This document shows positions 20,304 to 47,258 of a DNA stretch of 64,000 bases, piece after piece. The notes below the pieces were generated by a model, which saw nothing but the letters and a program-made list of their open reading frames with translations, made no database searches and was not told the DNA's origin. Where the stretch lies: assembly GCA_964495365.1 (NCBI GenBank), contig CAZBXY010000003.1, positions 11,180 to 75,179 of the forward strand, given 5' to 3'. Numbering within the stretch: position 1 is the first letter of the stretch; every line of letters starts with the position of its first letter. The position numbers were made by a program, and so were the translations under genes. The DNA comes from an uncultured Frigoriglobus sp. (GTDB lineage: Bacteria; Planctomycetota; Planctomycetia; Gemmatales; Gemmataceae).

Positions 20304-21125
<822 letters not shown>

Positions 21126-23193: not shown

Positions 23194-23217
23194 GACGGCA
23201 TCCTCCGTGTTCGGGGT

Positions 23218-24249: not shown

Positions 24250-24282
24250 GAAAGCCCTCCGTTGTGAACCCGGTCCCATCGC

Positions 24283-27513: not shown

Positions 27514-27953
27514 CACCCCTCCCGGTCCTTGTTGAGTTGCTCGACCCAGGCCGTCACCCGCGCCTCGATCTGGCCCCGGACTTCCCGAAACCGGGCGAGC
27601 CGTTCTTCGTCCGCGCCGTCCGGGGACGCCGGGTCCGGAAACGGCCAGGAGAGTTGGGCGAGCGCGAACGGCCACAGTTTCGGGCAGGACGCCTCGGCCG
27701 CCTGACACACGATGACCACGAATCGGGGCGATTCCTTCCCGAGGTACTCCTTCAGCCCGTGCGGCTCGCGGCCTGCGAGGTCAATGCCGACCTCCCGCAT
27801 CACCCGCACCGTCAGCGGGTGGATTGGCTTCGCCTCAAGCCCCGCACTCATCACCTCGAACCAGTCGCCGGCCGCGCGCCGGAAAAAGGCTTCGGCCATC
27901 ACGCTCCGCGCTGAGTTCGCCGTACACAGGAACAAGACCCCCGGCTTCCTCAT
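27513..27953 (-). CDS. arsC: Arsenate reductase, thioredoxin-dependent type
   Basis: VLFLCTANSARS.MAEAF, IVC..AEASCP, WPFPDPA. Confidence 0.88.
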   Translation of the reverse strand: MRKPGVLFLCTANSARSVMAEAFFRRAAGDWFEVMSAGLEAKPIHPLTVRVMREVGIDLAGREPHGLKEYLGKESPRFVVIVCQAAEASCPKLWPFALAQLSWPFPDPASPDGADEERLARFREVRGQIEARVTAWVEQLNKDREG

Positions 27954-27960
27954 AACCCTC

Positions 27961-28824
27961 CTACGGTTTCACCGCGTACACCTGGACGCTTGCCGCGAAC
28001 TCGTTCATGTCGTACCTCCGGAGCAACTCCACGAGCCCGCCGTGGACCGCGCTCGTCGCGGGCGAGCAACACCCTCCGGCATCAATGACGTCAAGACCTG
28101 ACGCCGGCGGAGAGCAGCAGCCTGCTTGCCCCTCGACCTTCGAGTAGGCGTTCAGATCCTTCTTCGTGTCCACGACCTCGACCGCGTTGAAGCCGGCCGC
28201 TTTCAGGGTCGCGACGTACTCGGCGATCAGGATGGCACCGGCGATGCAGCCGACGTGGGCCATGAGGTCGTTCCCGACTTCAGGAGGAAGCTCTTTCTTG
28301 AGGGCGATGTCGGAGACCGCGACCCGGCCGCCGGGCTTCAGCACCCGGAAGACCTCCCGAAGCACGGCCGCCTTGTCGGGGGCAAGGTTGATGACGCAGT
28401 TCGAGATGACGCAATCGACGGACGAGTTGGGGAGGGGCAGCCGGTCGATGGTGGAGAGGTGGAACTGGACATTGCCGAGGCCCTGCTTCGTCGCGTTTGA
28501 CCGCGCCCGCTCCACCATCTCGGGGGTCATGTCGATGCCGATGGCCTTCCCGGTCGAGCCGACCTTCCTCGCGGCTAGGAACACGTCGAGGCCACCACCC
28601 GAGCCGAGGTCCACCACCACCTCGCCCGGGCGGAGGTGCGCGGTCGCTGTCGGATTCCCGCACGAAAGGCCCATGTTCGCCCCGGCCGGGATGCTCGAAA
28701 GCTCCTCGGCCGAGTAGCCGAACGCCTCAGCCACGGCCTTCACCCCCGCGTTCTCGGTCGAGAGATCGCTTAGGGCGACCGCCGCGTATTTCTCACGGAC
28801 CACTTCTTCGATCGACTTACTCAT
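27961..28824 (-). CDS. arsM: Arsenite methyltransferase
   Basis: [45 protein letters not shown]. Confidence 0.92.
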
Positions 28825-28836
28825 CTCGTCCTCCGG

Positions 28837-29232
28837 TCAGTCGCATTTTGTGCCCTCGTTCTCCATGAGGCAGAGGGCCAGGTCGAGGAGCGGCGCGACG
28901 CACCCGTTGACGACCTGGTAGTACACGTTGTTCCCGTCGCGCCGGGAAGCGAGCATCCCGGTGTCCGAAAGCCGCACCAGTTGGTTCGACACCGCCTGCG
29001 GCTTCATGCCGAGCGTCTTCGCCATGTCCGTGACGGTCGCCTCACCGCTCCGCACCAAGTGATGCAGGAGCCGGATGCGGGTGTCGTTGGCGAGGATCTT
29101 GAACAGGGCCATCACCTTGACCGCCTGGACGAACGACAAGAGCGGTCGGTCCTTCAGAGCGAGCCGGTCTAAACAGCGCTCGGTGGCCGGCTCGCGGCGG
29201 CCCTTGACCGCAGTCGCGGGTTGTTTCGCCAT
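28837..29232 (-). CDS. ArsR/SmtB family repressor
   Basis: FKILANDTRIRLL, PQAVSNQLVRL, SRRDGNNVYY; GAGGGAGG RBS; first gene of the ars operon. Confidence 0.85.
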   Translation of the reverse strand: MAKQPATAVKGRREPATERCLDRLALKDRPLLSFVQAVKVMALFKILANDTRIRLLHHLVRSGEATVTDMAKTLGMKPQAVSNQLVRLSDTGMLASRRDGNNVYYQVVNGCVAPLLDLALCLMENEGTKCD

Positions 29233-29251
29233 GATCGGGTACCCTCCCTCA

Positions 29252-29288
29252 GAATCCAGTATTACACGAAATCGTGGATTCGTGTCAA
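29252..29288 (-). promoter_or_regulatory. ars promoter with dyad operator
   Basis: Perfect -35 TTGACA (29288-29283), a TAATAC/AATACT-like -10, and inverted repeat GAATCCA...TGGATTC overlapping it. Confidence 0.6.
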
Positions 29289-29559
29289 GTAGGTCTTTCG
29301 CTGCCCGTCCCGACGGAGGAGCCACTAGCCCCTCGACCTCTCCGAGGTCCGGGCACACCAGGACGGCGTGTGGTGGTCGATCGTTGTACATCTTGTTTCG
29401 TCGGCCGCCATCGTCCCAGCGGCACGGGTCCGCATCCTGTCGCTTCCATCGATCGGCCACGACCATGCGGATCACGCCATCCGCCGAATCCCGGTCGAGG
29501 TGCCCGCCGTGTGTCTACTGCGTTCCGAAGATGTCTTCTGGTCATTCTCCGGACTGGAC

Positions 29560-29765
29560 CATGTTGACCCCGATGCGGATCCTCACTTCGTGCTGACTCC
29601 CGAGCCGGTCCCGTACACCCTCGCCGAGCCGCGCCCGGCACCGACCTTCGGGCCGTTCCGCGCCATCGTCGATGACATCCTCGTCACCGACCGGACCGCG
29701 CCACCCAAGCAGCGCCACACCGCCACCCAGATCTTCCGAAGGCTCGTCGCCGAGCACCAAACTTG
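29560..29765 (+). mobile_element. IS21-family transposase (IstA) fragment
   Basis: PEPVPYT...P.FGPF.AIVDDIL..DRTAPPKQRHTATQIFRRLVAEH matches the IstA N-terminal signature; the rest is missing. Confidence 0.65.
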
Positions 29766-30094
29766 CGGTCGTCTCGGACGCCCGACGCGACGACATACCA
29801 GAGGCCGACCGCGACCACTGGCACAGAGCAGTTGGGTGATTGAAGCTGGCCAGTCGGTGGCCGGGCGAAAGACGTGACGGCCCGGCTACCGATCGGCAAT
29901 AGTCACGACTGCGGCTTCTTCGTGAACGTGCCGCTCGGCCCGGTGAGCTTGGTCGGCTCCTGGTCCGCTTGCTCGACCGCCTCCCACACCGCCTTCGGTG
30001 GGCGCGACCACTCCGAACGCCACGAAAAACAGAGTGCGTCCAGGTTTCCCAGACGCCACGTGTCATATGCCCCAGTTACTGGCGGTTCGGCGGT

Positions 30095-30392
30095 TTACTT
30101 CTTGGCCTTGTTTACCGGGCAGCAGTTCCGGCACACGAGCTGCTCGCCCGTGAGCGGGCAGGTGTAATCGCCCTCGCCCGTCGCCTTCGGCTCCTCGGCC
30201 TTCGCGGCGCTCGCCGCCCGCCCCGTCTCGCCGTTTAGGGGGGCAGCACCTCTCGCAGGGCAGTTCCTCCCCGGTGACGGGGCAGGTGGAGCCCGTCGTC
30301 TTCTCCTTCTACGTATTCGCGTAGGCGAGACCACCGCCCACGGCCCCCGTTACGGCCACCAGCGCCGCGGGCAGCCGCTTCCTTCGGTTCAT
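30095..30392 (-). pseudogene. Small exported Cys-rich two-repeat peptide, interrupted
   Basis: Signal-like MNRRKRLPAALVAV, in-frame TAG at 30311-30309, repeat 1 TCPVTGEELPCERCCP, +1 shift in C6 run (30238-30243), repeat 2 YTCPLTGEQLVCRNCCPVN. Confidence 0.65.
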
Positions 30393-30569
30393 CACACACC
30401 TCCTCGACGAGAAGGGGCCGCGAGGTCTCCCCCGGTAGCCCCCGATCTGTCAGGCCGCTCCAAAATGGAAGGGCGTTTCGGATTTGCTTCGTTGCTTTGG
30501 TAAGGTGGCAACGGTTCAAACAGCCTGCCACTCGCCCGTATGCGGACTGGTGCAGGTCGGCGGCCGGCT

Positions 30570-31784
30570 CTATTTCCCCTCAACCCCTACCACACGAGAG
30601 AACCGAGAGAGGAGGAATGGCTCGACGGGAAACGACGGCCGTTCGTCGGCAATCATCTCCGCCGTCAAAAGGCCCGTGAGGGGAGAGGTCAAGATGCCCG
30701 TCCGGAAGTGGCCGCAGGCGTTGGTGTACCCTTCTAGCCCGTCCGCCGGACCGAGGATCGGAAGCTCGTCGGGCGTCCCCGGACGAAGCCCGGACCAGAC
30801 CCGTTTGACCCGAACGTCCTTCAGGAACGGCACGGCCCGGACCGCCCCGGCGGAGAGCGCCTTCATCGCCTCCGGGGTCACCCCCGCCTCGTAACCCGCT
30901 TCCTCGGTCGTGCTCCCGATGATGACCTCGCCGTGTCCCTTCTGCGCGAGGTAACAGTCGGACGTGGACAGGCAGGCGGAGAGGACTTTCGGCAGGGTCT
31001 CGGTCCCGACAATTTGGCCGCGGACCGGCCGGACCGGGATGTCGAGGCCCGCCATCCGCCCGACCTCCGGTGCCCACGCCCCGGCCGCGTTCACCACGTG
31101 CCCGCACGGGATGACCCCCGCCTCGGTCTCGACGCCCGTCACCCGGCCGGAGGCGACCCGAAGCCCGGTCACCTCGGTGTGCGTCAGGACCGTGGCCCCA
31201 AGCGCCCGCGCCGCCGAGCGGAAGGCGTCGGCGAGCCGGTACGGATTCACTTGGTTGTCGCCGTGGAACCGGAGTGCTCCCCGGACCTCGCGGGTCACCG
31301 CCGGCTCCGCCTTGGCCAGCTCTTCCGGAGTCAGCCACTCGGTCAGTTCGCGGCCGCACGGGCAGCGCTCCCAGAGGGGCTTGGCGAACGCCACGTCCCC
31401 CTCGTCGTACATCAGAAACAAGAGCGAGGTCCGCTCGAACTCCACGTCGAGCCCGCCGCCGTCCCGCAGTTCCTGGGCGAGGGCCGGGAACATCTCGTTC
31501 GACCGGAGCGCGAAGTCGAGAAAACTCGCGGGGAGTTGACCCGGGCCGTGGACTCCGGGCGGGAGAGCCCCCATGCCGGCGAGGGCCTTGTAGAAGATGA
31601 CCCCGCAACCGAGACCCACCGACTCGCCGAGCGGCCAGAGGCCACCCGCCGAGGCAGAACTCGCCCGGCCCCGCTTCGGCCGGTCGATGAGCGTGACCTT
31701 AAGTCCCTTCCGCGCGGCGTAGTAGGCGACCGCGCAGCCGATGACACCGCCCCCGACCACCGCAACGTCCGTCGAACCCGTCAC
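30570..31784 (-). CDS. hcnC: Hydrogen cyanide synthase subunit C-like FAD oxidoreductase
   Basis: GGGVIG FAD motif plus ASAGGLW..GESVGLGCGVIF, FLDFAL.SN, CL.TSDCY.AQK, NACGHFRTGILTS, which I recall from Pseudomonas HcnC. GTG start overlaps the hcnB stop. Confidence 0.82.
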   Translation of the reverse strand: MTGSTDVAVVGGGVIGCAVAYYAARKGLKVTLIDRPKRGRASSASAGGLWPLGESVGLGCGVIFYKALAGMGALPPGVHGPGQLPASFLDFALRSNEMFPALAQELRDGGGLDVEFERTSLLFLMYDEGDVAFAKPLWERCPCGRELTEWLTPEELAKAEPAVTREVRGALRFHGDNQVNPYRLADAFRSAARALGATVLTHTEVTGLRVASGRVTGVETEAGVIPCGHVVNAAGAWAPEVGRMAGLDIPVRPVRGQIVGTETLPKVLSACLSTSDCYLAQKGHGEVIIGSTTEEAGYEAGVTPEAMKALSAGAVRAVPFLKDVRVKRVWSGLRPGTPDELPILGPADGLEGYTNACGHFRTGILTSPLTGLLTAEMIADERPSFPVEPFLLSRFSRVVGVEGK

Positions 31785-33244
31785 GAGGCACCTCCCCCGA
31801 CCGCGTCGAGCGGGTCGGCCACCGGTCCCTCGGTCAGCCCTTCGGCTCCAGCCAGAACCCCGAGGGTGACGGGCCGGACCGGCGGCCGCGGGTTGATGCG
31901 GCCCACCCCTGCCGGCGTCCGGCCGGTTTCGCGGCAGAGGTACGCGCCGGCGGAAGGCCCGCAGTTTCGCCCCTGGCAAGAGCCCATCCCGAGCCGGGTG
32001 AAGAGTTTTACCGCCTGGAGGTCCCGGGCACCCTCGTCGAGCGCGGACCGCACTTCGGCAAGGGTCACTTCTTCACATCGGCAGAGAATAGTCTCCGGGG
32101 TGAGAAGGCCCACAAGCCCCGGCTTCACGCGATAGCGCGAGTCGAGCAAGCGCCAGGCGTCCGCCAGGAAACGGAGCCGGGCCAAGGGCTCGTGCCGACG
32201 GCCCTCGGCGTCCTCTTCGGTGAGAAGCCCGGCCAGCCGGGCGGCGGTGACGCCGGCGACTCGGCCTTCATCTTCGGCCGCCGCAGCACCCCCAATCCCG
32301 GCCCCGTCACCGACGGCAAAGACGTTCGGGACGGTGGTCTCGAAGAACGGTCCCCGCTCCGGAACCCAGCCGCCCAGCCCCGGGGCGTAGCGGTGCCCGC
32401 AACCGGCGAGCGTCGTCAGCTCCGTGTTCGGGACGAACCCGAATCCGACGACCACGAGGTCCACCTCCGCGGTAAGGGCATCGCCCCGGCGGGGGCTCCA
32501 GTCGTCCGCGTCGAGGGGTCCGTATGATGCGCCCTCGACCTGCTCCCGGCCGCTCGCGGCAAAAATGGTGTGGTTCGAGAGGAAGGGAACGCCCGCGGTA
32601 CTTAGTGCCCGCCAGTGGTCAATCGCGTCGGCGATGAACTCCCACTCGCTCCACTCCGCCGGGAGCGGCTCGGGCGGCCACCAGGGAAGACCAGCTTCAA
32701 GGACGGCGACAACCTCCGCGCCGGCCCCGCGGAGGCGGTTCGCCACTCCGGCCAGGAGGGGACCGGTTCCAGTTACCAGAACCTTTCGACCGGGACGAAC
32801 GAGATTCCCTTTAAGGAACGCCTGGACGCCGCCCGCAGTCATGACGCCCGGCAGGGTCCAGCCGGGAAATGGGACCGGGCGGTCGTAAGCGCCGGCGGCA
32901 ATGACCAGCCGCTCGGCCCGCATGAGGCCCGAAGCCCGGTCCGAGGACCAGAAGACATCGCGACCGCCGAAGACGCCCAGGACCGCGGTCCCCGAGAGCA
33001 CCTCGACCCGGCCGGCGACGCCGGCGAACTCCGTTCTGAGCCGCTCGCCTTTGGCGAAATCCTTGCCGAGTGCGCTCCCGTCGGTCACCCGGAAGCCACT
33101 CGCCGGCGGGCGGTAAATCTGGCCGCCCAAGTAACCGGCCTCGTCGATGAGGGTACAGGGGAGGCCGGCCTGGGCCGCCTCGATAGCCGCCCCGAGGCCG
33201 GCCGGACCTGCCCCGATGACGACGAGTGGTTTTGAAGGGGTCAT
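31781..33244 (-). CDS. hcnB: Hydrogen cyanide synthase subunit B-like oxidoreductase
   Basis: VIGAGPAG, GGQIYR, AGAYDRPVPFPGWTLPGVM, CRCEEV, TRLGMGSCQGRNC, PRPPVRPV; ATGA coupling to hcnA. Confidence 0.75.
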   Translation of the reverse strand: MTPSKPLVVIGAGPAGLGAAIEAAQAGLPCTLIDEAGYLGGQIYRPPASGFRVTDGSALGKDFAKGERLRTEFAGVAGRVEVLSGTAVLGVFGGRDVFWSSDRASGLMRAERLVIAAGAYDRPVPFPGWTLPGVMTAGGVQAFLKGNLVRPGRKVLVTGTGPLLAGVANRLRGAGAEVVAVLEAGLPWWPPEPLPAEWSEWEFIADAIDHWRALSTAGVPFLSNHTIFAASGREQVEGASYGPLDADDWSPRRGDALTAEVDLVVVGFGFVPNTELTTLAGCGHRYAPGLGGWVPERGPFFETTVPNVFAVGDGAGIGGAAAAEDEGRVAGVTAARLAGLLTEEDAEGRRHEPLARLRFLADAWRLLDSRYRVKPGLVGLLTPETILCRCEEVTLAEVRSALDEGARDLQAVKLFTRLGMGSCQGRNCGPSAGAYLCRETGRTPAGVGRINPRPPVRPVTLGVLAGAEGLTEGPVADPLDAVGGGAS

Positions 33245-33561
33245 GCCTCGACCCTCCAGACCCCGGTCCCGAGCTGGGTATCGACCCGCATCCCGGCCCG
33301 TACCGGTGTCTGGCACGTCCGCACGCCCGGTTGCCCATCGATTGTCATCACGCAGTCGAAACAGACCCCGAGGCCGCAGTAGAGGCCGCGGGCCTCGCCC
33401 CGGCGCGGGGTGGTTCTTAACGCACGCCGGCCCGCGGCGAGGAGCGCCGCGGCGACCGTCTCGCCCTCGTAGGCCCGGACCGGGTGCCCGTCGACGATGA
33501 TCTCAATTTCGGACCCGCGGGTTACCGCACCTGGGGCTACTCTCGTCTGGTCGTCCATCAT
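33241..33561 (-). CDS. hcnA: Hydrogen cyanide synthase subunit A-like 2Fe-2S protein
   Basis: GETVAAALL, GLYCGLGVCFDC...RTCQT. Confidence 0.75.
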   Translation of the reverse strand: MMDDQTRVAPGAVTRGSEIEIIVDGHPVRAYEGETVAAALLAAGRRALRTTPRRGEARGLYCGLGVCFDCVMTIDGQPGVRTCQTPVRAGMRVDTQLGTGVWRVEA

Positions 33562-33679
33562 TCGACCTCAGTCATGAAAAAAGCTCCGAAGAGTCCACCA
33601 TCCCGAGCTGCCGAGCTGCACTGCACCAAAATACGGGACGAGAACTTCTTCGTTGGGTTTGATGTCTTCACGGAGCCAC

Positions 33680-34039
33680 TCAACCTTTGGTTTTCGGAAC
33701 AAGAGTGTAGTGAATCGTCTGCGCGCGGATGTACCCGTCTCGAATGACGTAAGAGTCAACGCCGTCCGTGACGGTGTGGGTGTCGGAGTCGGCCGACCAC
33801 TCAAGAATGCCGACGTCCTGTTCGACGATGATGACCTTGTAGGTGTAGCGGGCGTTCGGCAGATCCTGATTCAGTTGGCGGTAGCAGCCGCGGATCGCCT
33901 CAAGCCCGCGGCGCACTCCGCTCGACATGACGAGAAAAGAGTCCTCGCGATAGCACCCCAAGAAATCTTCCTCGGAATGCGACCGGGAGAGATCCAGGTG
34001 CCTGTTAAGCACATCTTGAGGAGTAGGGGCGTCTTTCAT
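33680..34039 (-). CDS. SnoaL/NTF2-like protein
   Basis: VLNRHL...Y.EDS....RGLEAIR...LEWSA...DGVDSYVIRDG.I.AQT; ATGA-coupled to the upstream gene. Confidence 0.7.
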   Translation of the reverse strand: MKDAPTPQDVLNRHLDLSRSHSEEDFLGCYREDSFLVMSSGVRRGLEAIRGCYRQLNQDLPNARYTYKVIIVEQDVGILEWSADSDTHTVTDGVDSYVIRDGYIRAQTIHYTLVPKTKG

Positions 34040-34530
34040 GATGCCTCCATCGGCGTTGAGAATCGTTTAGTCCACCGAGCGGCGATCCAGAAAGCTGCGG
34101 GCACGAGTAGCGTAAGTTGCAAGAAGGGCCACAACCCTACGACGAGCACCGGAACGACGGGCATCGACTCGGTGTACGACCAGCGCCCGAAGGCGAGTGC
34201 CCGCCATTCGATGGCCGTTGCGGATGCTCCGCCCAAGAGCGCGGCAGTCGCATAGACGTTCCACCCGCCCCCGATTCCCCACCGGAGTCGTCTCGCTGCC
34301 AGGGCACCCATGGCGTAGATCCCGAGGGTGATGACCGCGTCGCCCGCAGTCGCAACCGTGCAGCCCAACACGGTCTCGCGCCACGGCCGCCCGGCCATCT
34401 CGGCATAGGCCGGCCTCTGCGCCATCTCCCACACCCAGTTGAGACCGAAGGCGGCGAGGATGACCCTCGCTACAAACGGCCAGAGTGACCGGGTGCGGTC
34501 GGCAATCGGCCGCAGCACCCCTCCGGTCAT
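34036..34530 (-). CDS. Membrane hypothetical protein
   Basis: Several TM segments (LNWVWEMAQ.P.Y; GLWPFLQL), coupled on both sides. Confidence 0.7.
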   Translation of the reverse strand: MTGGVLRPIADRTRSLWPFVARVILAAFGLNWVWEMAQRPAYAEMAGRPWRETVLGCTVATAGDAVITLGIYAMGALAARRLRWGIGGGWNVYATAALLGGASATAIEWRALAFGRWSYTESMPVVPVLVVGLWPFLQLTLLVPAAFWIAARWTKRFSTPMEAS

Positions 34531-34784
34531 GACGCGTCCCCAGTCGTCGAACTCCGGACCTTGGTCTGGTAACCGGCCTTACCGATGCGCTGCGCGATTG
34601 CGTCGGGGTCAAGCACTGCCGAGTCAAACAGCACCTCGATCGTCTGAGCGGGGGCTTTTGCGCGGACCTGCCGCACGCCCGGCAGAGTCTTCAACAGTCG
34701 CTCGACGCGCTGCTCGCAGCCCGCACAGGCCAGCCGCTGGTCGCCGGTGATTTCAAGAGTGATTGACTTGACCATACATGACAT
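34527..34784 (-). CDS. HMA-domain metallochaperone (CopZ-like)
   Basis: LACAGCEQRVERLL...PGV..V...KAGY; AAGGAG RBS. Confidence 0.85.
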   Translation of the reverse strand: MSCMVKSITLEITGDQRLACAGCEQRVERLLKTLPGVRQVRAKAPAQTIEVLFDSAVLDPDAIAQRIGKAGYQTKVRSSTTGDAS

Positions 34785-34790
34785 CTCCTT

Positions 34791-37244
34791 CTATGCCTGC
34801 GCACCGGACGGCGTTTGCGGCGTCTCGCCCACCGTCTTTATGGCCTGGAAGAAATACGAGCCCCGGCCCCACAGGGAGTTAATGAAGATCGTCGTCACGC
34901 TGGCTGCCATCGCGACCATACCCCAGATCGGGTAAACCAGCCCCGTCGCGGCCGCTGGGATCCCGACACCGTTGAAGAGGAAGGCGAGTGAAACATTTTG
35001 AACGATCTTCCGGTAGCTGGAGCGACTGACCTCGTAGGCATCGAGCACGGCACCGAGCCGCTGGTTCAAGATGATCACGTCGGCGGATTCGATCGCGATG
35101 TCGGCCCCGCTCCCGAAGGCGATGCCGACGTTCGCCTGCATCAGGGCCGGCGCGTCGTTGATCCCGTCCCCGACCATGGCCACGCGGGCTGTCTCCTGGA
35201 GCTTGCGAACCATGTTGGCCTTCTCGGCCGGTAGGACGCGTGCGTGGACGTCTTCGATACCGGCGGCGCGGGCGAAGTGGCGGGCCGCCTGCTCGTTGTC
35301 GCCGGTGATGAGGCTCGTGCGGATGCCGAGGGCGTGGAGGCGGCGTACGGTCTCCGCCGCGTCGGGCCTGAGCGCGTCGCCGAGCGCCAGGAGTCCGAGA
35401 AGCACCCCGTCCCGTGCGACGCCGACGACGGTCTGACCCTGCGATTCCAGTTCGTGGATACGTGGCCTCTCGGCCCCGATGTCAACGCCTTCGGAATCGA
35501 GAAACGCCGGGCTGCCGACCAACAGGGCAGTAGCGCCCAGGCGGGCTCTGACGCCTTTACCGGGGACGGCCTCGAATCCCTCCACCTCGGCGAGGGTGAG
35601 GCCACGGTTGAAGGCCTCTTCCACAACCGAACGAGCAAGCGGGTGCTCGGAACCCGTCTCCACGGCCGCCGCGAGCGCGAGGAGTTCCTGTTCCGAGGAC
35701 GCGATGGGAACGACTTGGCGAACCGCCGGCCGGCCCTCGGTCAGGGTTCCGGTCTTGTCGAAGACCACGCGCTGCACCCGGCGCAAGGCCTGAAACGCCT
35801 CGCCGGTACGCATCAGCACTCCGCGCTCGGCCGCCTCGCCCGCCCCGCGCACGATGGAGAGCGGGGCCGAGATCCCCACCGCGCAGGGGTACCCCATGAC
35901 GAGCACGCTCAAGCCCGCGAACATCGCCCGCTGCACGTCGGGGGAGCCGCCGACGAGAAGCGGGGCGAGGAGCCAGAAGAGGGTCGCGCCGGCCGCGGTG
36001 AGCAGCACGAGCGGCGTGTACACCTTCAGCACCCGGTCCACAAGGTGCAGGAGGCCGGGCTTCAGGGCTCGCGCGTCCTCCACGCTGCGTATCACTTTCC
36101 TGAGAAAACTTTCTTCGCCGACGACACTGACGCGGACGAGGAGCGTGCCGTGGCCGTTTAGAGAACCGCTGATGGTCTGGTCTCCAGGGCGCTTCTCGAT
36201 CAGTTTTGGCTCGCCGGTGACGAGCGACTCGTCCACGTCCGACCCCCCCGATTCGACGACACCGTCCACCGACATCCGCTCACCCGGGCGGACGCGCACC
36301 ACGTCGCCGACGCGCACCTCTTCGAGCGGCACGTCCACGTCCCGTCCGTCCCGCACCACGTGCGCGAGGTCGGGTTCGAGGTCCAGGAGCTTCTTGACCG
36401 CCTGCGAACTCCGGGTCTTCACGATGAGGGACAGCCACTCGGAAAAGATGTGATACGTGAGCACCATGACCGCGACCGAGAAGAACGCGACCGTGGGAAA
36501 ATCCGGCAGGTCGAATGCGAGGCCGGCGGCCCCGCCGATAAGCCCGGCGAATGCACCGAATTCGACGAGTACGTGCTGGTTAAGGATACGGCGCTTGAGC
36601 GCGCTCGCGGCCATCCACACGATGTGCCCCCCTACTCCGAAAATGAGGAGTACGGCGAGCGCTCCGGCAAGCCACGGTGTGGCCGCACCGAACGTGCCGC
36701 GCAACTGGAGGGCGTAAACGCCGGCACCAAACACGGCGAGACCGGCCGAACCGGCAACCGCCTGGTGCAGGCCGTAGCCGCGCAAGACCACGAAGGCGAA
36801 CGCGACGAGACTGGCGATGGAAAACACGCAGAGCGCGAACCACACGCTATCGACCGGGTATCCGGCCAGCCCCATCGCGGCGATACTCGCCGAGAGCGCG
36901 ACCAGGAACCGCCCGCGCTCGCGCACCAGCTCGCGCTCTTCCTCGTCAAACGGGCGCAACTTGCGCGGATCGGACACGGTGTAGCCGATATCCTTGAGGA
37001 TCTGGAGCAGCTCCTCGGGGCGCGCTACGGTCGGGTCGTACTCGATGAGGGCCTGTTCGTGGGTCAAGCTGACCGCGACCTTGAAGACGCCGGGTTGCCG
37101 GCCCAGCGCCTTTTCGATCGTGCCGGTGCAGAGCGAACAGTGGAGGCCCCCGATGCGCGCGCGGATCCGTCGGTGCTCCGGCAGTTCAGAAGGCTCTTCG
37201 CTCCAGAAACGCTGACCAGTCTCGTCCATCGTTGCGGTACTCAT
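34791..37244 (-). CDS. Heavy-metal P1B-type ATPase with YPC motif
   Basis: N-terminal GLHCSLC HMA, VTGEP, GYPCAVG, DKTGT, SEHPL, VGDGINDAP. Confidence 0.93.
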   Translation of the reverse strand: MSTATMDETGQRFWSEEPSELPEHRRIRARIGGLHCSLCTGTIEKALGRQPGVFKVAVSLTHEQALIEYDPTVARPEELLQILKDIGYTVSDPRKLRPFDEEERELVRERGRFLVALSASIAAMGLAGYPVDSVWFALCVFSIASLVAFAFVVLRGYGLHQAVAGSAGLAVFGAGVYALQLRGTFGAATPWLAGALAVLLIFGVGGHIVWMAASALKRRILNQHVLVEFGAFAGLIGGAAGLAFDLPDFPTVAFFSVAVMVLTYHIFSEWLSLIVKTRSSQAVKKLLDLEPDLAHVVRDGRDVDVPLEEVRVGDVVRVRPGERMSVDGVVESGGSDVDESLVTGEPKLIEKRPGDQTISGSLNGHGTLLVRVSVVGEESFLRKVIRSVEDARALKPGLLHLVDRVLKVYTPLVLLTAAGATLFWLLAPLLVGGSPDVQRAMFAGLSVLVMGYPCAVGISAPLSIVRGAGEAAERGVLMRTGEAFQALRRVQRVVFDKTGTLTEGRPAVRQVVPIASSEQELLALAAAVETGSEHPLARSVVEEAFNRGLTLAEVEGFEAVPGKGVRARLGATALLVGSPAFLDSEGVDIGAERPRIHELESQGQTVVGVARDGVLLGLLALGDALRPDAAETVRRLHALGIRTSLITGDNEQAARHFARAAGIEDVHARVLPAEKANMVRKLQETARVAMVGDGINDAPALMQANVGIAFGSGADIAIESADVIILNQRLGAVLDAYEVSRSSYRKIVQNVSLAFLFNGVGIPAAATGLVYPIWGMVAMAASVTTIFINSLWGRGSYFFQAIKTVGETPQTPSGAQA

Positions 37245-37299
37245 ATTTCCATCCTTTGCAGTTCTTCTTTTCGGGCACTTTGTCTCCGGAGATTGCAGA

Positions 37300-38322
37300 T
37301 CACATGAACCCCAACTCCTCGACCCGTTGACGCAAGCCGCCCTCGGTCGCCATCAGCGGGTTGTAGAACACACGCACCCGCTTCCGTTTCACGTCGGTCA
37401 GTACCTTGTGGACCGCCTGGAGCGCGAGGAGAGAGCGGCTGAGAGTCTCGGCGCACCCCTCGCAGACCATTCCGGGTGTGCTGATCTCCGCCTCGACCAG
37501 GGCAGCGGCTTCGTCCTTTGGACCACCGGCTTCGCCGCCAACTCCTCGGGCCCTGAGGGCGATTACGACCAACCAGACGACAACGGACAGCACGGTGATA
37601 CCTGTCGCGACCGCGGCGGCGACGGCCCCGAACCGTTGAGCCACGAAGGCGACCCCGAGTACGATCAAAAGCAGACCGGACGCCTTCTCCAGCCGCGGCT
37701 GCCAACGGGCGACGGCCTTGAAGTCCTTGAGCAGCCCCGTGAAAGTTCCGGCCAGGATGAGCGGCAAGCCCCGGACCAAGGCGAAGACGAAGAGGAGGAG
37801 CGCCCCGTACCACGCACTGCCCGTGACCCCGGCGTAGAGGAGCATCGTGAGAACCACCGGGATGGAGCACGGGCAGGCCGACCCCACTAGCCCGAACGGA
37901 AGCCCTAGAAGGAAGGCCCCGCCGAGACTCTCGACCCGCCGCTCGGGCGCGGTGACGGACGGGACTCGGAACCGAAACGCCCCGAGCATTGCGAGCCCGA
38001 GGAGGACCATGATGACGCCGGCGATGAGGTAGCCGTTCGCCCCGAAGAAGGCGGCGAACTTCGAACCGGCCCACCCGAAGACGAGCCCGTAGGCCCCAAA
38101 GGTCGTGGCCGTCCCGACCACGAACGCGAGGCTCCTGGTGAAGGCCTTCCACCGCCTGAGCCCCGGCTCGCCGGCCACGTACCCCATGACTACCGGCACC
38201 GTCGCGAGGACCGTGGGCGTCAGGGCCAGGAGCAGCCCGGCCGCGGCGGCCAGGAGCAAGGCCCAGGGCGACGCCGTTTGCAGGCCCACCAGAGTTTCTT
38301 CGATCGTCTCCAGGTTCAGCAC
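37300..38322 (-). CDS. CcdA/DsbD-beta-like membrane protein fused to C-terminal HMA domain
   Basis: LTPTVL..VPVVMGYV, AFLLG.PFGLVGSACPCSIPV, LEKASG; HMA GMVCEGC. Confidence 0.8.
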   Translation of the reverse strand: MLNLETIEETLVGLQTASPWALLLAAAAGLLLALTPTVLATVPVVMGYVAGEPGLRRWKAFTRSLAFVVGTATTFGAYGLVFGWAGSKFAAFFGANGYLIAGVIMVLLGLAMLGAFRFRVPSVTAPERRVESLGGAFLLGLPFGLVGSACPCSIPVVLTMLLYAGVTGSAWYGALLLFVFALVRGLPLILAGTFTGLLKDFKAVARWQPRLEKASGLLLIVLGVAFVAQRFGAVAAAVATGITVLSVVVWLVVIALRARGVGGEAGGPKDEAAALVEAEISTPGMVCEGCAETLSRSLLALQAVHKVLTDVKRKRVRVFYNPLMATEGGLRQRVEELGFM

Positions 38323-38334
38323 GACGCACCCCCT

Positions 38335-38805
38335 TTACTTCTTCTCGGCGGGGGTTGGGTCCTTCTTCTCGGCCGGGTTGAAGTCGATCTTCTCGGCCTC
38401 AAGCCAGATCCTCCCGCCCTTCTTCACCACCTTGCCCGTGACCTTGGCCCGCTGCCCAACCCGCTGCTCGGTCAGTATGAGTTTGCCGGGTGCCAGATCG
38501 ACCATAACCTCCCCGCCGTCGTCCTTCAGACGCAGCCAGCACCCGCTGGCCGGACACTGCTGGGACACCCCGGCTTCGACCGCGACTCTCTGCCCGAGCC
38601 GTTCCTCGGTCACGCAGCCGGTACACACCGTGGGAACCTTCTCCGTGTCCGGTTCGGCCGGAGCCGCCCGGCCGGTTGCGGCTGTCGCCGGTGATTCGGC
38701 CGTGGTCTTCGCGGGGTCGCACCCCGTGACGGCCAGGGCCGCGGTGACGAGAAGGCCCGCGGCGACGGCGCTCAGGGCAACTGTTCTCGCGTGTCGTGTC
38801 CTCAT
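38335..38805 (-). CDS. Lipoprotein with Cys motifs, OB-fold-like (DUF4920-like)
   Basis: Lipobox AVTGC, VCTGC, V.QQCPASGCWLRL, KVTGKV; AAGGAG RBS. Confidence 0.65.
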   Translation of the reverse strand: MRTRHARTVALSAVAAGLLVTAALAVTGCDPAKTTAESPATAATGRAAPAEPDTEKVPTVCTGCVTEERLGQRVAVEAGVSQQCPASGCWLRLKDDGGEVMVDLAPGKLILTEQRVGQRAKVTGKVVKKGGRIWLEAEKIDFNPAEKKDPTPAEKK

Positions 38806-38866
38806 ATGGTCTTTCTCCTTGCGGGTCCGGTGGGTCGGCTTGGACCTTCCATGCCAGTCTGACGCC

Positions 38867-38898
38867 ATTCTAAGCTCCGTACCGCGGTACGGAGTCAA
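38867..38898 (-). promoter_or_regulatory. MerR-type promoter/operator
   Basis: TTGACT-20 nt-TAGAAT with perfect palindrome CTCCGTACCGCGGTACGGAG. Confidence 0.9.
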
Positions 38899-38983
38899 GG
38901 GGAGATTCGGGTTGTTTGAGAAAAAGAACCCAGGGATTCCCTAACTAAGGTTCGGCTTACGCACCGCCTTGATCCTGATATCA

Positions 38984-39727
38984 TCAGCCCCCAACTCGTG
39001 GCATGATCCCGGTCGCTCGGCTCGGGCCTCGTGCCGAAAAATCCCCGTCCGGGTCGCTTACTACCCCGTCCACCAGCCGGATGACGCCGGTCACCTCCCC
39101 GAGCATCCGGGTGTCGTGGGTGACGACGAGCACGGCGGTCCCGTGCTCGTCGGCGAGCCGCCGCAGGAGCCGCATGACGGAGAGGCCCCGCTCGGCGTCG
39201 AGGCTCGCCGTCGGCTCGTCGGCGAGGATGAGCTTTGGGTCGTTGGCGAGCGCGCGGGCGATGGCCACCCGCTGCCGCTCGCCGCCCGAGAGCTTCTCGG
39301 GAAGGAGGTGCGCCCGCTCCGCCACCCCGAGAGACCCGAGGAGTTCGTCCGCCCGCTCTGACGCACGCCGGCCGCGGAGCCCGAGGATGTCGAGCGAAAG
39401 GAGCACGTTCTCCCGGGCCGTGAGGAACGGGATGAGGTTCGCGAACTGGAAAATGAAGCCGAGCTTTTCGCGCCGCAGCCGTTGGAGGTTGGGCCGAAAC
39501 CTTCCGCCGTAGATGTCCTGGCCGCCGAGGACCAGCCGTCCCGCGGTCGGCTCGGTGACGAGGCCCAGGATGTTGAGGAGGGTCGTCTTCCCCGACCCGC
39601 TCGGCCCCATCACCGCGAACACCTCGCCCGGCCGCACGGCGAGGTCCACGCCCTTCAAGACCTCGACCCTGGCGCGCCCCTCGCCGTAGGTCATCCAGAG
39701 TCCTTCGGCCTCGACTGCGAACTCCAT
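38984..39727 (-). CDS. ABC transporter ATP-binding protein (MacB/LolD-like)
   Basis: GPSGSGKTT, LSGGERQRVAIARAL, ADEPTASLD, VVTHD. Confidence 0.92.
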   Translation of the reverse strand: MEFAVEAEGLWMTYGEGRARVEVLKGVDLAVRPGEVFAVMGPSGSGKTTLLNILGLVTEPTAGRLVLGGQDIYGGRFRPNLQRLRREKLGFIFQFANLIPFLTARENVLLSLDILGLRGRRASERADELLGSLGVAERAHLLPEKLSGGERQRVAIARALANDPKLILADEPTASLDAERGLSVMRLLRRLADEHGTAVLVVTHDTRMLGEVTGVIRLVDGVVSDPDGDFSARGPSRATGIMPRVGG

Positions 39728-39730
39728 GCT

Positions 39731-41020
39731 TTAACTCCCGAGGACGCTCCGGGCGTCCACCGTCATGGCCCGCCGCACGGCGAGCAGACTCGACAAGGCC
39801 GCGATGACCGTCATGGCGGCGAGCATCTGCCAAACGTCCCCGTAGGTCGCCTCGACCCGCCGCGGAAAGAAAGGCTCGATGGCGAACTCCAGCGCACCGC
39901 CGAGCAGCGTCCCCAGCACCCCCATGAGAACCGCCTGCTGGAGGATCATCCCGTAGATGCGCAGCCCCGGCGTGCCGAGGAGTTTGAGCACCGCGATGTC
40001 CTTCACCTTGTCGAGGGTGAAGGTGTAGATGATGAGCCCGATGACGATGCCGGCGATGACGACCAGGATGACGCGAAAGAGGGAGAGCTGGAGGACCAGC
40101 AGCCGGTTCGACCCCATGAGCTGAAGGTTGACCTGCCGGGGGCCGGTGTAGACTTCGAGGCGCTTGCCCTTGGAAATATCCCGGGCGACCGCCTCCGGCG
40201 ACGCCCCGGGTTCGAGTCGCACCGCGATGGCGCTGATGACGTGCGTGTCGTGAGACACCGCTTCAGCCGTTCGGGCGATGGGTCCGGCGAGCCGGGGAGC
40301 GGCCGTCCCCTCTTGCGCGAACGGCTCCCGCATCCGCCGCCGGCGGTCCCCGAGGAGGTCCGGGTCCGGCCGGAAGAGGATGGCTTGGGCCTCCTTCAGG
40401 GTGGTGTAAATTACGGGGTCGGCGGTGAACCCGACCATGTTCTTCGTGAGGCCCACCACCGTGTAATCGTGGTAGCCGACCCGCACCCGCTCCCCGACCT
40501 GAAAACCCGTCTTCACATCGGCGACGAGTTCATAGTCGTCGGCCTCGATGCCGCGACCGGCGACGAGCGCGGGCGGTCCGCCCATCCGGCCCGGCTTGTA
40601 GCCGATGACGACGAACCGCTCTTCGGTCGGCACGTCCATCCAGCCGGGTTCCACCATCGTCTGCGTCCCGGCCACCGCGTTCTGGTACATGAACTTCGCA
40701 AGCGGCGTCGGCCGCGGCGGGCGGACAACGTGTTCCATGCCGATGACCAAAGGGCTCGCCTCGGCCACCCCGGGGATGACCTCGACGGCGTGGTAATAGT
40801 CCTCGGGCAACCGCGACACCTCGACGAAGGGGCCGAGGGTGTCCTTCTCGACGACCCACAAATCGGCCCCGGTCTCGGTGACGATGGTCGCCGAGTCGTA
40901 AATCACCCCGCGGATAATCCCCCCGATGGCCAGGACCACCATGAGTAGGAGCCCGACCCCGAAGACAGAGATGAAGAACTTGAAGCGGTGGTAGCGGATG
41001 TCCTTAATTGCGAGATTCAC
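39731..41020 (-). CDS. ABC permease (MacB/FtsX family)
   Basis: N-terminal TM, periplasmic domain (GADLWV), three C-terminal TMs, DIAVLKLLG. Confidence 0.88.
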   Translation of the reverse strand: MNLAIKDIRYHRFKFFISVFGVGLLLMVVLAIGGIIRGVIYDSATIVTETGADLWVVEKDTLGPFVEVSRLPEDYYHAVEVIPGVAEASPLVIGMEHVVRPPRPTPLAKFMYQNAVAGTQTMVEPGWMDVPTEERFVVIGYKPGRMGGPPALVAGRGIEADDYELVADVKTGFQVGERVRVGYHDYTVVGLTKNMVGFTADPVIYTTLKEAQAILFRPDPDLLGDRRRRMREPFAQEGTAAPRLAGPIARTAEAVSHDTHVISAIAVRLEPGASPEAVARDISKGKRLEVYTGPRQVNLQLMGSNRLLVLQLSLFRVILVVIAGIVIGLIIYTFTLDKVKDIAVLKLLGTPGLRIYGMILQQAVLMGVLGTLLGGALEFAIEPFFPRRVEATYGDVWQMLAAMTVIAALSSLLAVRRAMTVDARSVLGS

Positions 41021-41032
41021 GCTGATGCCCCT

Positions 41033-42145
41033 TTACGGCGGCCCGGCCGAAGTCGAGGCGACCTTGACCGTCTCGCCGCCCTTTAGGCCGATGGGTTTTA
41101 GGATGACCTGGTCCCCGGCCTTCAAGTCGCCCGTCACGGCGACGACGGGGAGTCGGGGGCTCGTGGCCCCGGGCTCAACTTTGACCTTCCGGACTCCGCC
41201 GTCTTGCCCGGCCACGAAGACGAACCGCTCGTTCCCGAACGGCATGACGGCCACCTTCGGGACGACGAGAGCGTTGGGGGAGGAGCCCACTTCGATGTAG
41301 ACTTCGGCCCACTGCCCGACCTGGAGTTCACCGGTCGGGAGCGGGAACGCGACCTGGACGAGCATTTCTTCCGTCACCGGGTCGGCCTCGGGGTAGACCC
41401 GGTACACCCGGCCCTTAAGCGGCTTGTCGGCCCGGCCGCGGAGGACCACCGTCGCCGGCTGGTCCTTCTTCACCTTGCCCGAGAAGCGCTGGTCTACGTG
41501 GGCATCGACCCAGATGACGGACGTGTCGGCCACCGACACCATCGGCTGCCCGGCAACGACGGTGTCCCCGGCTTCAACCCAGCGCCGCGTGACGAGCCCG
41601 CCCGCAGCAGCTTTGACCTTCGTCTCGGTGAGCTTGAACTCGTGGAAGCGGAGGTCCGCCTCCTCAACCCCGATAGCGCTCTCCGCGACGCGGTACTTCT
41701 CTTGGGCAATGTCGTGTTCCTCGCGGCCGATCGCCCCCGAGCGGATGAGCGCTTGGGCCCGCTCCCAGGAGAGTTTTGTCTGGTAGGCCGTGGCCTTCGC
41801 GGCTTCGAGTCGTGCCTTCGCGCGGGCCACTTGGTGCCGGAGGTCGGTGTCCTCAAGGATCACGACGAGTTGGCCTTCCTCGACAAAATCACCTTCATCG
41901 ACGAGCACCTTTTCGACCCGGCCATTGAGCTTCGAGCCCACCTTGGCAAGCACCTTTGTCGTCACGGTGCCGGTGCCCTGCACCTCGGCAACGACCGATT
42001 GCTCCAGCACGGGGGCGACACTGACCTCGCGGGGGGAAAGGAAGAACACTTTCGCCACGGCCGCGGCGGCAAGCAGCAGGACGGCATACGTGACAAGCGT
42101 TCGGAGAAAGCGCCACGCCCGGCCGGATCGGCTCACATGGCCCAT
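41033..42145 (-). CDS. Efflux membrane-fusion (periplasmic adaptor) protein
   Basis: GRVEKVLVDEGDFVEEGQL, coiled coil, VEAGDTVVAGQP, ALVVP. Start uncertain. Confidence 0.88.
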   Translation of the reverse strand: MGHVSRSGRAWRFLRTLVTYAVLLLAAAAVAKVFFLSPREVSVAPVLEQSVVAEVQGTGTVTTKVLAKVGSKLNGRVEKVLVDEGDFVEEGQLVVILEDTDLRHQVARAKARLEAAKATAYQTKLSWERAQALIRSGAIGREEHDIAQEKYRVAESAIGVEEADLRFHEFKLTETKVKAAAGGLVTRRWVEAGDTVVAGQPMVSVADTSVIWVDAHVDQRFSGKVKKDQPATVVLRGRADKPLKGRVYRVYPEADPVTEEMLVQVAFPLPTGELQVGQWAEVYIEVGSSPNALVVPKVAVMPFGNERFVFVAGQDGGVRKVKVEPGATSPRLPVVAVTGDLKAGDQVILKPIGLKGGETVKVASTSAGPP

Positions 42146-42203
42146 GTGACGGCATTCCACGCGAGGCGACCCCGTGTCCACCCGCACGGGTAGCGGTAGC
42201 TTC

Positions 42204-42235
42204 ATTATCGACTCCGTACCGTAGTCCGGAGTCAA
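42204..42235 (-). promoter_or_regulatory. MerR-type promoter/operator
   Basis: TTGACT-20 nt-GATAAT with dyad GACTCCGGAC-N4-GTACGGAGTC. Confidence 0.85.
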
Positions 42236-42262
42236 GCCGAATGGGCGGCGTGAGGATGGGAA

Positions 42263-43483
42263 TTATCCCGCGCCGGGGGTGGGACGGGGCGGCCGCTCCG
42301 AGTGGAAGAGCCTGATTGCGAGAGCTGCGCCCGCGAACTGAACGACGGTGAACACGCCGAGCGCCGGACCGAAGCCCATGCGGAGCGATTCGCCGAAGAG
42401 GACGCTCCCGACGCCCATTCCGGTAAAGAGCATAAAGACGTTCAACCCCATCGCTTGGCCGGGGCGCTTCCCGCCGAGGTCGGTGACAATCCCGGCCAGG
42501 AGCGGCTGGGTCATGTCGTACCCGAGCGAGAGGACGGTCACGGCCGCGGCGGCGGCAAGGAGCGGGAGGTCCAGGATGAGCCCGGCCGCCCCGGCGGCCC
42601 CGGCCACGAGGCCCGCCGGGATAAGCCACCGTCTTCCCCACCGGTCGGCCGCCCGGCCGATCACGGGTCCGAGGAGAAAGCCGGGGACGCCGTACCCGAG
42701 GAGCGCGAGCCCGATGCCCACCTCGCCCAGGCCGTGCCGCTCGGAGAAGTAGAGGCCGAGCCAGGTGAAGACCCCGGCGTGGAAGACCGAGTTCACGAAC
42801 ACGTAGCCGTACGTCGTACGCCCGCGGGGCGAGCCGAGGAGGGTCGCGTAGCCGGTGAGCACCTGGCGGAGCGGCGGGGCTGTTTCGCGGGTCGGCTCCC
42901 CGAGGAGACCCCGGTACGGGAGGAGTAGCGCGAGCACCAAAAGCCCGAGGCCGCCGACGCCGAGGAAGATGGCCCGCCACCCGACGAGCGGCTCAAGGAG
43001 TGCCCCGAGGGAGGAGCCGAACGCCATGCCGCCCGCCATCGCCCCGAAGAGCCACCCGAGCGGCCGGCCGCGCCGATCAAAGGGGTAGTGCTGTCCCACG
43101 AGGGCCAGGGCCAGGGGGACCACACCACTCGCCCCGAGGCCGGTCAAAAGCCTCCAGAGGACGAGTTCGCCACCCGATTGGGCCGAGGCGGTGAGTGCCG
43201 TCAGGACGCTAAAGGCGAGGAGCGACCCGAGCACGATGCGCCGTCGCCCGAGGCGGTCCGAGACGAGGCCGTAAAACAGGGTCGAGATCCCGTAGGGGAT
43301 CATGTACGCCGGGACGGCCAGGGCCACCGCTTGGGGGGACGCGCCGAACGCCCGGGAGAGGAGCGGGAGGAGCGGTGCGATCATGAACGCCTGGAAGAAA
43401 ACGAGGAACGTCGCTGCGCACAGGACCCCGAGGAGGCGCTCGTGCCGCGGACCCCCCGACTCTGGTGGGTGCGCCGCCGTCAT
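42263..43483 (-). CDS. MFS transporter
   Basis: GLVSDRLGRR and GRAADRWGRR motif A, ~12 TM segments, ATGA-coupled to the regulator. Confidence 0.9.
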   Translation of the reverse strand: MTAAHPPESGGPRHERLLGVLCAATFLVFFQAFMIAPLLPLLSRAFGASPQAVALAVPAYMIPYGISTLFYGLVSDRLGRRRIVLGSLLAFSVLTALTASAQSGGELVLWRLLTGLGASGVVPLALALVGQHYPFDRRGRPLGWLFGAMAGGMAFGSSLGALLEPLVGWRAIFLGVGGLGLLVLALLLPYRGLLGEPTRETAPPLRQVLTGYATLLGSPRGRTTYGYVFVNSVFHAGVFTWLGLYFSERHGLGEVGIGLALLGYGVPGFLLGPVIGRAADRWGRRWLIPAGLVAGAAGAAGLILDLPLLAAAAAVTVLSLGYDMTQPLLAGIVTDLGGKRPGQAMGLNVFMLFTGMGVGSVLFGESLRMGFGPALGVFTVVQFAGAALAIRLFHSERPPRPTPGAG

Positions 43484-43944
43484 GGTGCCTTCCGTGGAAC
43501 ATCCCGGCCCGGCTGCTCCGCATGGTCGGTTTCCCGGCAGCGGGGGCAGCCGCTCAGCGATTCGATGATGGGGCAGGAGGCGACGGACGACTTTCCGTCG
43601 CAGGTCGAGAGGAGTTCGGTCAGGCTTTTCCTCATCGCCTCCAGGTCGCGGATTTTGTGGTCGATCTCTTCCAGCTTCGCTTCCGCCACCTTCCGGACCC
43701 GGCCTGCCTTCGCCCGCGCCGTCTCCCGAAGCTCCAGGAGATCCTGGACTTCCTTAAGCGAGAACCCGAGTTCCTGGGCGCGCTTGATGAACCGCACCCG
43801 CTCGACCGTCTCGGGTGGGTACTCCCGGTAGCCTGAGGGCCGGCGGGGCGGCTCGGGGAGAATGCCCTTCCGCTCGTAGAACCGGAGCGTCTCGATGTTG
43901 ACCCCGGCCTGCTCCGCCACTTCTGCCGTTCGTAGTGTCGCCAT
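43480..43944 (-). CDS. MerR-family regulator lacking the Cys82 equivalent
   Basis: AEQAGVNIETLRFYERKG HTH; AKAGRV where the first regulator has QPCDDV; TCDGKSSVASCPII loop; extra CPRC. Confidence 0.88.
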   Translation of the reverse strand: MATLRTAEVAEQAGVNIETLRFYERKGILPEPPRRPSGYREYPPETVERVRFIKRAQELGFSLKEVQDLLELRETARAKAGRVRKVAEAKLEEIDHKIRDLEAMRKSLTELLSTCDGKSSVASCPIIESLSGCPRCRETDHAEQPGRDVPRKAP

Positions 43945-43969
43945 GACTTCCCCCCCGTTCACAGAACCC

Positions 43970-44001
43970 ATTATAAACCCTGGACTGTAGTACGGAGTCA
44001 A
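43970..44001 (-). promoter_or_regulatory. MerR-type promoter/operator
   Basis: TTGACT-20 nt-TATAAT with imperfect dyad CCGTAC-N4-GTCCAG. Confidence 0.85.
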
Positions 44002-44063
44002 GTGCGGAGATCTCGCGGGGGGAAGATGATCGGTTCTTTACGACAGCCGCTCGCTGCTGGAAC

Positions 44064-47109: not shown

Positions 47110-47258
47110 GGCGTCATCCCCGGAAGTGACGGTCCGTTCACTCCGCACAGATTGACACGAATCTGACCCGCAGTCAACGGGCCGCCTGACATTACCCTAT
47201 TAGTGATACTAGGTATACTAAGTGACAAAAGTCAAGTATAATTCGGCGGCCGGTGTGA

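Follow-up and report, generated by a model that had tools for sequence, protein, structure and literature searches.

An apparently undescribed, metal-linked variant of the HcnABC family behind a MerR-type promoter in a planctomycete

Why would genes resembling those of a hydrogen cyanide (HCN) synthase stand at the end of an operon that looks equipped to sense and move heavy metals? The question is raised by a 64,000-nucleotide stretch of DNA from an uncultured Frigoriglobus sp. (Planctomycetota, Gemmataceae; GenBank assembly GCA_964495365.1, contig CAZBXY010000003.1, positions 11,180 to 75,179), here termed the window, in which nine genes end in hcnA, hcnB and hcnC. We judge these three genes to encode a real, conserved and apparently undescribed metal-linked variant of the HcnABC family, whose cyanide-forming step we infer from its kinship with known enzymes. 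A search of titles and abstract openings turned up no paper that deals with hcnABC inside a metal operon or with the fusion of HcnC to a heavy-metal-associated (HMA) domain, subscription papers being mostly outside the scope of that search; the occurrence of hcn-like clusters in many taxa and the complexing of metals by biogenic cyanide are ideas already described (PMC13635244, PMC12467314, PMC5114478, PMC3715747).

All nine open reading frames lie on the minus strand within 30570-38898. The promoter/operator at their head, P3 (38867..38898, minus strand), reads TTGACT-20 bp-TAGAAT and holds a perfect TCCGTAC-N4-GTACGGA dyad, so placed within a 19-20 bp promoter spacer as is characteristic of MerR operons; it matches the 7-4-7 Hg-MerR consensus, set in a 20-bp spacer, an arrangement that has been called "mixed type" (PMC1526738). 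There follow a predicted Cys-rich lipoprotein with CxxC and CxxxxC motifs (38335..38805; weakly DUF4920/OB-fold-like, DUF4920 E=0.0015, under the family cut-off), a CcdA/DsbD-type membrane thiol protein with a fused C-terminal HMA domain (37300..38322; PF02683, PF00403), a P1B heavy-metal ATPase (34791..37244), a stand-alone, CopZ-like HMA metal chaperone (34527..34784; PF00403), a small membrane protein without a family match (34036..34530), a SnoaL-like protein (33680..34039; PF12680) and the three hcn genes. The small membrane protein, present in loci L047 and L121 and missing from L006 and L019, and the SnoaL-like protein are variable accessory genes. From the lipoprotein to HcnC the intergenic gaps are 12, 55, 6, -4, -4, 118, -4 and -4 bp, so that stop and start are coupled at the four junctions of -4 bp, and the largest gap, 118 bp, lies between the SnoaL gene and hcnA. 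In a terminator scan of 29200-44300 (14 sites, versus 9.1 +/- 3.1 in shuffles) no terminator-like site fell in the 118-bp gap; a sigma-70 scan for a promoter there was negative, but is blind to 19-20 bp spacers, and an alignment of the gap from five loci gave partial similarity and no recognisable promoter or dyad. The nine genes are very likely transcribed together. The first-pass annotation, which had described nine co-directional genes after one MerR-type promoter with no obvious terminator among them, was accurate in coordinates, order, couplings, largest gap and domains.

The terminal genes follow the HcnABC plan, being contiguous and carrying 2Fe-2S, FAD/BFD and DAO domains: an HcnA-like [2Fe-2S] gamma subunit (33241..33561; PF13510), an HcnB-like alpha subunit with flavin adenine dinucleotide (FAD) and [2Fe-2S] domains (31781..33244; PF07992, PF04324, PF17806) and an HcnC-family FAD beta (catalytic) subunit (30570..31784). 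The iron-sulfur (Fe-S) cysteines are invariant, Cys62/67/70/83 of HcnA in 40 scored rows and Cys388/390/423/428 of HcnB in 38. In this class of dehydrogenases the beta subunit is described as the catalytic one, and subunit exchange as occurring (PMC4575208). Over about 400 residues the window HcnC is 48-50% identical to proteins named HcnC from P. aeruginosa, P. chlororaphis and Chromobacterium, its closest named relatives are planctomycete records, and GESVGLGCGVIF, a block that the first-pass annotation had linked to Pseudomonas HcnC, is found in the window, P. aeruginosa and Chromobacterium proteins alike. In a 72-row tree, whose outgroups are long branches and uncharacterised plasmid proteins rather than tested enzymes, 60 rows form an HcnC-family clade (support 100/99, stem 2.7) that excludes ThiO and opine-type subunits. 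Within it a canonical subclade of 23 rows (100/99, stem 1.6) holds the tested cyanogenic species and excludes the window HcnC, which is, by its sequence, a sister lineage to canonical HcnC within one family. The placement of the C subunit with HcnC, apart from ThiO and from opine- and hydroxyproline-type oxidases, bears out the identity first proposed for it.

The metal-linked and canonical clades have 123 near-invariant HcnC positions in common, many of them absent in ThiO-like outgroups and including GESxGLGCGV, C277-Y278, R334, C357, R361 and T362; 19 fixed differences set the two clades apart. Y278, R334 and R361 align with residues of glycine oxidase that we take to be substrate ligands. 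Because it belongs to the HcnC-family clade and keeps these shared positions, the window enzyme probably acts on glycine, and the active-site blocks that it shares with HcnC make HCN its reasonably probable product. That HcnC is simply ThiO was considered and rejected, as the genome has a separate ThiO-like gene and the HcnC clade lies apart from ThiO. HcnC scores 253 against the TIGR02352 (ThiO) cut-off of 250.8, and the ThiO-like gene, on contig C38, reaches only 225 bits; automatic annotation may therefore swap the two genes. Deeper HcnC-family lineages (P0241, P0245-P0247, L126) lie outside the canonical and metal clades, and P0241, of 547 residues, carries a C-terminal extension.

The association with metal genes recurs across genomes. 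With the HcnC of the window as seed, a scan of genomes yielded 25 loci, of which five distant ones (26-29%) were omitted from the synteny count; in 10 of the other 20 a P1B, HMA, MerR, MerA or CsoR-type gene lies within 8 kb, and L001, with a MerR at 9 kb, was added by hand as linked. A metagenome scan, from which the best 80 of 184 loci were used, favours metal-linked loci because its seed was an HMA-fused homologue. Once partial matches and 29 near-duplicates (identity of 95% or more) had been taken out, 85 rows were kept. Of these, 29, among them that of the window, are metal-linked, 19 are unlinked on a sufficient length of flank, 19 were too short for scoring and 18 are proteins without genomic context; five short metal-linked rows were scored solely on an HMA domain fused or adjacent to HcnC. 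A single clade of 44 rows (SH-aLRT 89) takes in all 29 of the metal-linked rows and just two unlinked ones, L013 and L087, and of the 17 scorable rows outside that clade, eight of them canonical-type, none is metal-linked. The linked loci span at least three phyla, with Planctomycetota, Bacteroidota and Pseudomonadota records. The joint recurrence of hcnABC, P1B ATPases and MerR or HMA proteins, which the first-pass annotation had thought worth seeking, extends across phyla, and the arrangement is not peculiar to planctomycetes. In 13 of 25 loci (not dereplicated) hcnA starts 1-26 bp past the upstream metal gene, a gap that leaves no room for a separate hcnA promoter in those 13 and lends indirect support to a predicted metal-induced transcript that extends to hcnC. 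Genes of mer type occur in the available flank of 5 of 28 linked versus 0 of 19 unlinked loci. The metal-linked system is nonetheless rare and patchy: of 400 genomes drawn evenly from across the phylum, three had an HcnC-family gene, two of these genes being unlinked and one lying on a 5.4-kb contig. A cultured carrier is Tautonia sociabilis GM2012 (L005).

Two side observations concern gene content. An ArsP-family permease gene lies between hcnB and hcnC, with overlapping stop and start, in five loci (L015:8883-10004, L017:8871-9995, L014, L054 and L055). A carbon-nitrogen hydrolase gene after hcnC in an unlinked actinomycete locus (L008:11736-12557) was left unused as evidence of cyanide, as it passed no NCBIfam cut-off and its catalytic positions are apparently degenerate.

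Metal-linked HcnC proteins also carry features of their own. The motif C141-P-C143-G (31353..31364, minus strand) is found in 29 of 29 metal-linked rows and in none of the 19 unlinked rows of this sample, being missing even from both unlinked rows inside the metal clade; the cysteine pair is present in 115 of 120 near homologues versus 0 of 120 in a canonical-side search. In seven of the 120 best homologues, and in a Bacteroidetes protein (L009), a C-terminal HMA domain with MxCxxC is fused to HcnC, and these fusions stand at four places in the tree, where the backbone is unresolved. A model of the fusion P0045 (mean pLDDT 91.8) has the HMA domain folded confidently, with a flexible linker before it; the CPC pair sits in the loop that joins helix 128-139 to strand 148-151, and the best fold matches of the model are glycine oxidases. 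The CPC motif and the HMA fusions together make the link to metal stronger than was apparent in the first-pass annotation. A predicted complex of HcnC with the stand-alone HMA protein scored 0.02.

The pump is likewise unusual. Copper pumps of the P1B-1 type (CopA) have the membrane ligands CPC, YN and MxxSS; the window ATPase, a P1B protein by TIGR01525 (above cut-off) but a non-canonical one, departs from that Cu(I)/Ag(I) set with YPC (35883-35891), FN and MAASV (MxxSV). The motif is YPC and not CPC in 30 of the 30 loci where sequence covers it, and the YPC pumps of linked loci form two deep subfamilies, 35-46% identical. The idea that such pumps need hcnABC was discarded, six pump-seeded loci having no hcn genes (L130-L133 by tblastn, L134-L135 by annotation), and a search of plasmids for HcnC gave no match above 48%. 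The same Bacteroidota module occurs without hcnABC in L134 and with hcnABC behind the pump in L009. We conclude that a widespread YPC/HMA/CcdA/MerR module carries hcnABC as an optional cassette.

The nine genes are likely the last third of a small MerR regulon, since two further MerR-type promoters and a merR gene lie ahead of them: P1 (43970..44001), before merR-MFS, and P2 (42204..42235), before an HlyD adaptor, an FtsX permease and an ABC ATPase. The probable upstream part of the regulon (38984..43483) comprises an MFS transporter, the HlyD adaptor, a MacB/FtsX permease and the ABC ATPase, and the likely controller is a MerR-family protein (43480..43944) that scores 145.5 bits against the TIGR02051 cut-off of 150.85; all lie on the minus strand. 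The first-pass annotation had overlooked the promoters at 42235 and 44001 as well as the pump's YPC and HcnC's CPC motif. An operator pattern from the window sites has four matches in the genome, versus 0.0016 expected by base composition, two of them being window sites to which the pattern was fitted. Of the 39 flagged loci, many of them too short to reach that far, 11 have a similar, co-oriented site upstream (L003, L004, L005, L006, L019, L047, L070, L071, L072, L086 and L121), and the same MFS gene is near hcnC in L001, L002, L005, L009 and L069-L071. Elsewhere in the genome (L127, G000:C250:5362-5950), a close paralogue of this Cys82-less regulator is accompanied by a pair of operators of this type, and its contig also carries an RND gene.

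Hg(II)-MerR is reported to bind its ion through cysteines 82, 117 and 126 (PMC5027573); in our alignment the window regulator keeps the two loop cysteines and has Ala at the Cys82 position, and so departs from the three-cysteine set. That substitution would fit a linearly bound ion such as Cu(I), Ag(I) or Au(I). Naming the metal from MerR was nevertheless rejected, as the regulators heading related operons are mixed, with and without a Cys82 equivalent. Toward mercury point the Hg-MerR-like operator in P3, the mer genes near linked loci and a MerA homologue on the contig. By stability constants, cyanide can strip thiols of Au(I), Ag(I) and Cu(I) but not easily of Hg(II). We give Au/Ag/Cu(I) roughly the same odds as Hg(II) or organomercury.

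We suggest that a metal-adapted HcnABC makes cyanide locally, on metal induction, and thereby caps a soft metal ion, a reading that we would hold with even confidence for and against. Metal bound by MerR would induce P3 through hcnC; HcnABC would convert glycine to HCN and CO2, as its shared active-site blocks suggest, with electrons leaving via HcnB and HcnA; and a soft metal ion is predicted to sit on the Cys141/Cys143 pair of HcnC or on an HMA domain. A small cyanide output beside the bound metal might then, speculatively, yield a metal-cyanide unit needing only one protein thiol, which would match a pump that has a single membrane cysteine; alternatively the complex could leave by the MFS/ABC transporters. 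That this amounts to a new resistance chemistry, in which enzyme-surface cyanide caps the metal and the YPC ATPase pumps a metal-ligand complex and not the bare ion, is a doubtful extension, under which the operon would also be a natural metal-inducible cassette for cyanide leaching. Biogenic cyanide is described as complexing and leaching metals (PMC3715747, PMC5114478).

Several observations count against this proposal. Known products are confined to the canonical clade, and the window enzyme belongs to a sister lineage outside it; given the canonical stem of 1.6, cyanogenesis could be an innovation of the canonical branch. The partner subunits show no preference for the canonical side, HcnB being 32-33% identical to canonical-type proteins versus 34-37% to other oxidase alpha subunits and HcnA 33-40% versus 36-51%, and an HcnB tree leaves the window and canonical proteins unjoined (root support 26). 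A careful 72-row tree nests the unlinked L008 and L020 among metal-type rows, and the correlation of CPC with metal genes comes down to two independent contrasts (p=0.5, not significant). For Hg(II) at neutral pH thiols beat cyanide, yet mer genes often adjoin, and YPC/HMA/CcdA/MerR modules without hcn genes occur on plasmids beside mer and ars genes. Protection of the host is scarce as well, with cytochrome bd in one of six host genomes and cyanase in none of five, in incomplete genomes (the window's is 86% complete); an alternative-oxidase search matched no control genome and was uninformative. In Chromobacterium, cioA and cynTSX are described as the protective side of cyanogenesis (PMC3715747). 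Such scarcity makes bulk leaching less likely and favours local metal-bound cyanide, or none. Lastly, "efflux" is an assumption for this pump, because the one tested YPC pump that we found, CopAL6, made E. coli less resistant to copper and increased its uptake of the metal (PMC11082258).

The main alternative is a MerA-like reductase, in which glycine or another small amino acid would be oxidised without release of cyanide and the electrons, by way of FAD and Fe-S centres, would pass to a metal held on the CPC pair and HMA domain, or to CcdA, so that the metal is reduced to a less toxic form. An HMA domain tethered to a flavoprotein with an extra cysteine pair does resemble MerA, CcdA and thioredoxin-type partners recur, and few cyanide-tolerance genes, ambiguous HcnA/B affinities and an HcnC outside the tested clade would all be in keeping. 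HcnC, however, retains family-specific blocks that ThiO-like outgroups do not share, and the contig already has a MerA homologue, some 32 kb off; we consider the reductase unlikely. The traffic could instead run inward, with cyanide as a solvent and the YPC pump importing metal, or with metal-cyanide arriving from outside to be bound and broken down, and no export in either case. "SCN" appears in the titles of three of 20 genome records (L001, L009, L017), presumably a thiocyanate-fed reactor series, and the mer system is established as coupling uptake to an enzyme. The raised copper accumulation reported for CopAL6, a YPC pump with HMA domains at both ends like those of L003, L005 and L009, speaks for import too (PMC11082258). 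Yet MerR activators are established as answering metal excess, the adjoining genes serve resistance (mer, ars, CusA-like RND), and a nitrilase-like gene was unmatched in metal-linked loci (one query), so that we regard this account as improbable.

There is also the view that a mobile metal module took up, on a single occasion, a cyanide synthase of the ordinary kind. Metal would turn this enzyme on but would not be its target; its output would serve antagonism or redox balance, and its CPC motif would be an inherited marker. Parsimony, with one gain and one loss, and the plasmid modules that work without hcnABC are consistent with such a passenger or stress output. Against it, the link is kept although gene order takes many forms and the loci differ in pump subfamily (two) and in type of regulator (MerR, and CsoR-type in L009), HMA fusions stand at four tree places, and CPC is absent from rows without metal neighbours; we place its probability slightly lower again than that of import.

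The surroundings of the operon suggest how it was acquired. A close HcnC occurs in one of 24 other genomes of the genus, which makes the region patchy, and also present in the window are genes for a relaxase and an integrase, together with clusters of ars and of mer-like type. A mobile origin of the region is likely; of the mobile island that the first-pass annotation had inferred here, the patchiness and nearby mobile genes stand, and no island borders were found around the region. The relaxase/helicase is of TrwC type (7138-9780, plus strand), and the tyrosine integrase (46201-47148, minus strand) looks, we presume, integron-like. Downstream, the ars cluster (26414-29235, minus strand) comprises ArsR, an ArsM-like methyltransferase, two ArsC-like reductases and an aquaporin. 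A second MerR unit (1478-3437, minus strand), whose regulator (2871-3386) keeps the Cys82 equivalent, has its own, different dyad and heads a zf-CopZ/MerT/HMA fusion; the MerA homologue lies just outside the window, about 32 kb from the operon (G000:C3:8541-9968). Reading frames at 20304-26046 (minus strand) resemble, by eye, the genes of a phosphate ABC transporter together with one of alkaline phosphatase type.

Bacterial cyanide is currently viewed as a quorum- and oxygen-controlled weapon, its binding of metals a side effect exploited in bioleaching. If local, metal-induced cyanide formation is the true reading, cyanide would here be a purpose-made metal ligand, supplied by an enzyme lineage wired to metal sensors. 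The system offers a direct way to test what purpose bacterial cyanide serves and suggests what the YPC pumps, so far little studied, might carry; it also bears on how Au, Ag, Cu and Hg are cycled and how metals may be recovered from waste. Under the reductase reading, too, it would be an undescribed metal-handling flavoenzyme.

Set beside known systems, the window enzyme is closest in plan to HcnABC (EC 1.4.99.5) of P. aeruginosa, P. fluorescens/protegens CHA0 and Chromobacterium violaceum, with the same A-B-C order, domain set and Fe-S cysteines. The window operon is predicted to be under MerR-type control, whereas the canonical one is described as under quorum and ANR control (PMC3715747; title of Laville 1998), and the CPC pair and HMA fusions belong to the metal-linked side. 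The three-subunit plan is also that described for OdhABC/OoxAB/NoxAB, D-hydroxyproline dehydrogenase and archaeal L-proline dehydrogenase (PMC4575208); compared with uncharacterised plasmid proteins of this general type, HcnA and HcnB are 34-51% identical, while the beta subunits are 27-29% identical and lie outside the HcnC clade. ThiO enzymes are the closest solved relatives of HcnC by sequence and fold (4ysh, 1ng3, 3if9), but are without the GESxGLGCGVIF insert and the A/B partners. With the mer operon of Tn21/Tn501 (MerR, MerT/P, MerA) and with CueR/CopA/CopZ the window shares the 7-4-7 operator, the HMA chaperones and one metal switch for transporter and flavoenzyme; it differs from them in a local MerR without Cys82, a YPC-type pump and an enzyme of the DAO/HcnC family in place of a disulfide reductase.

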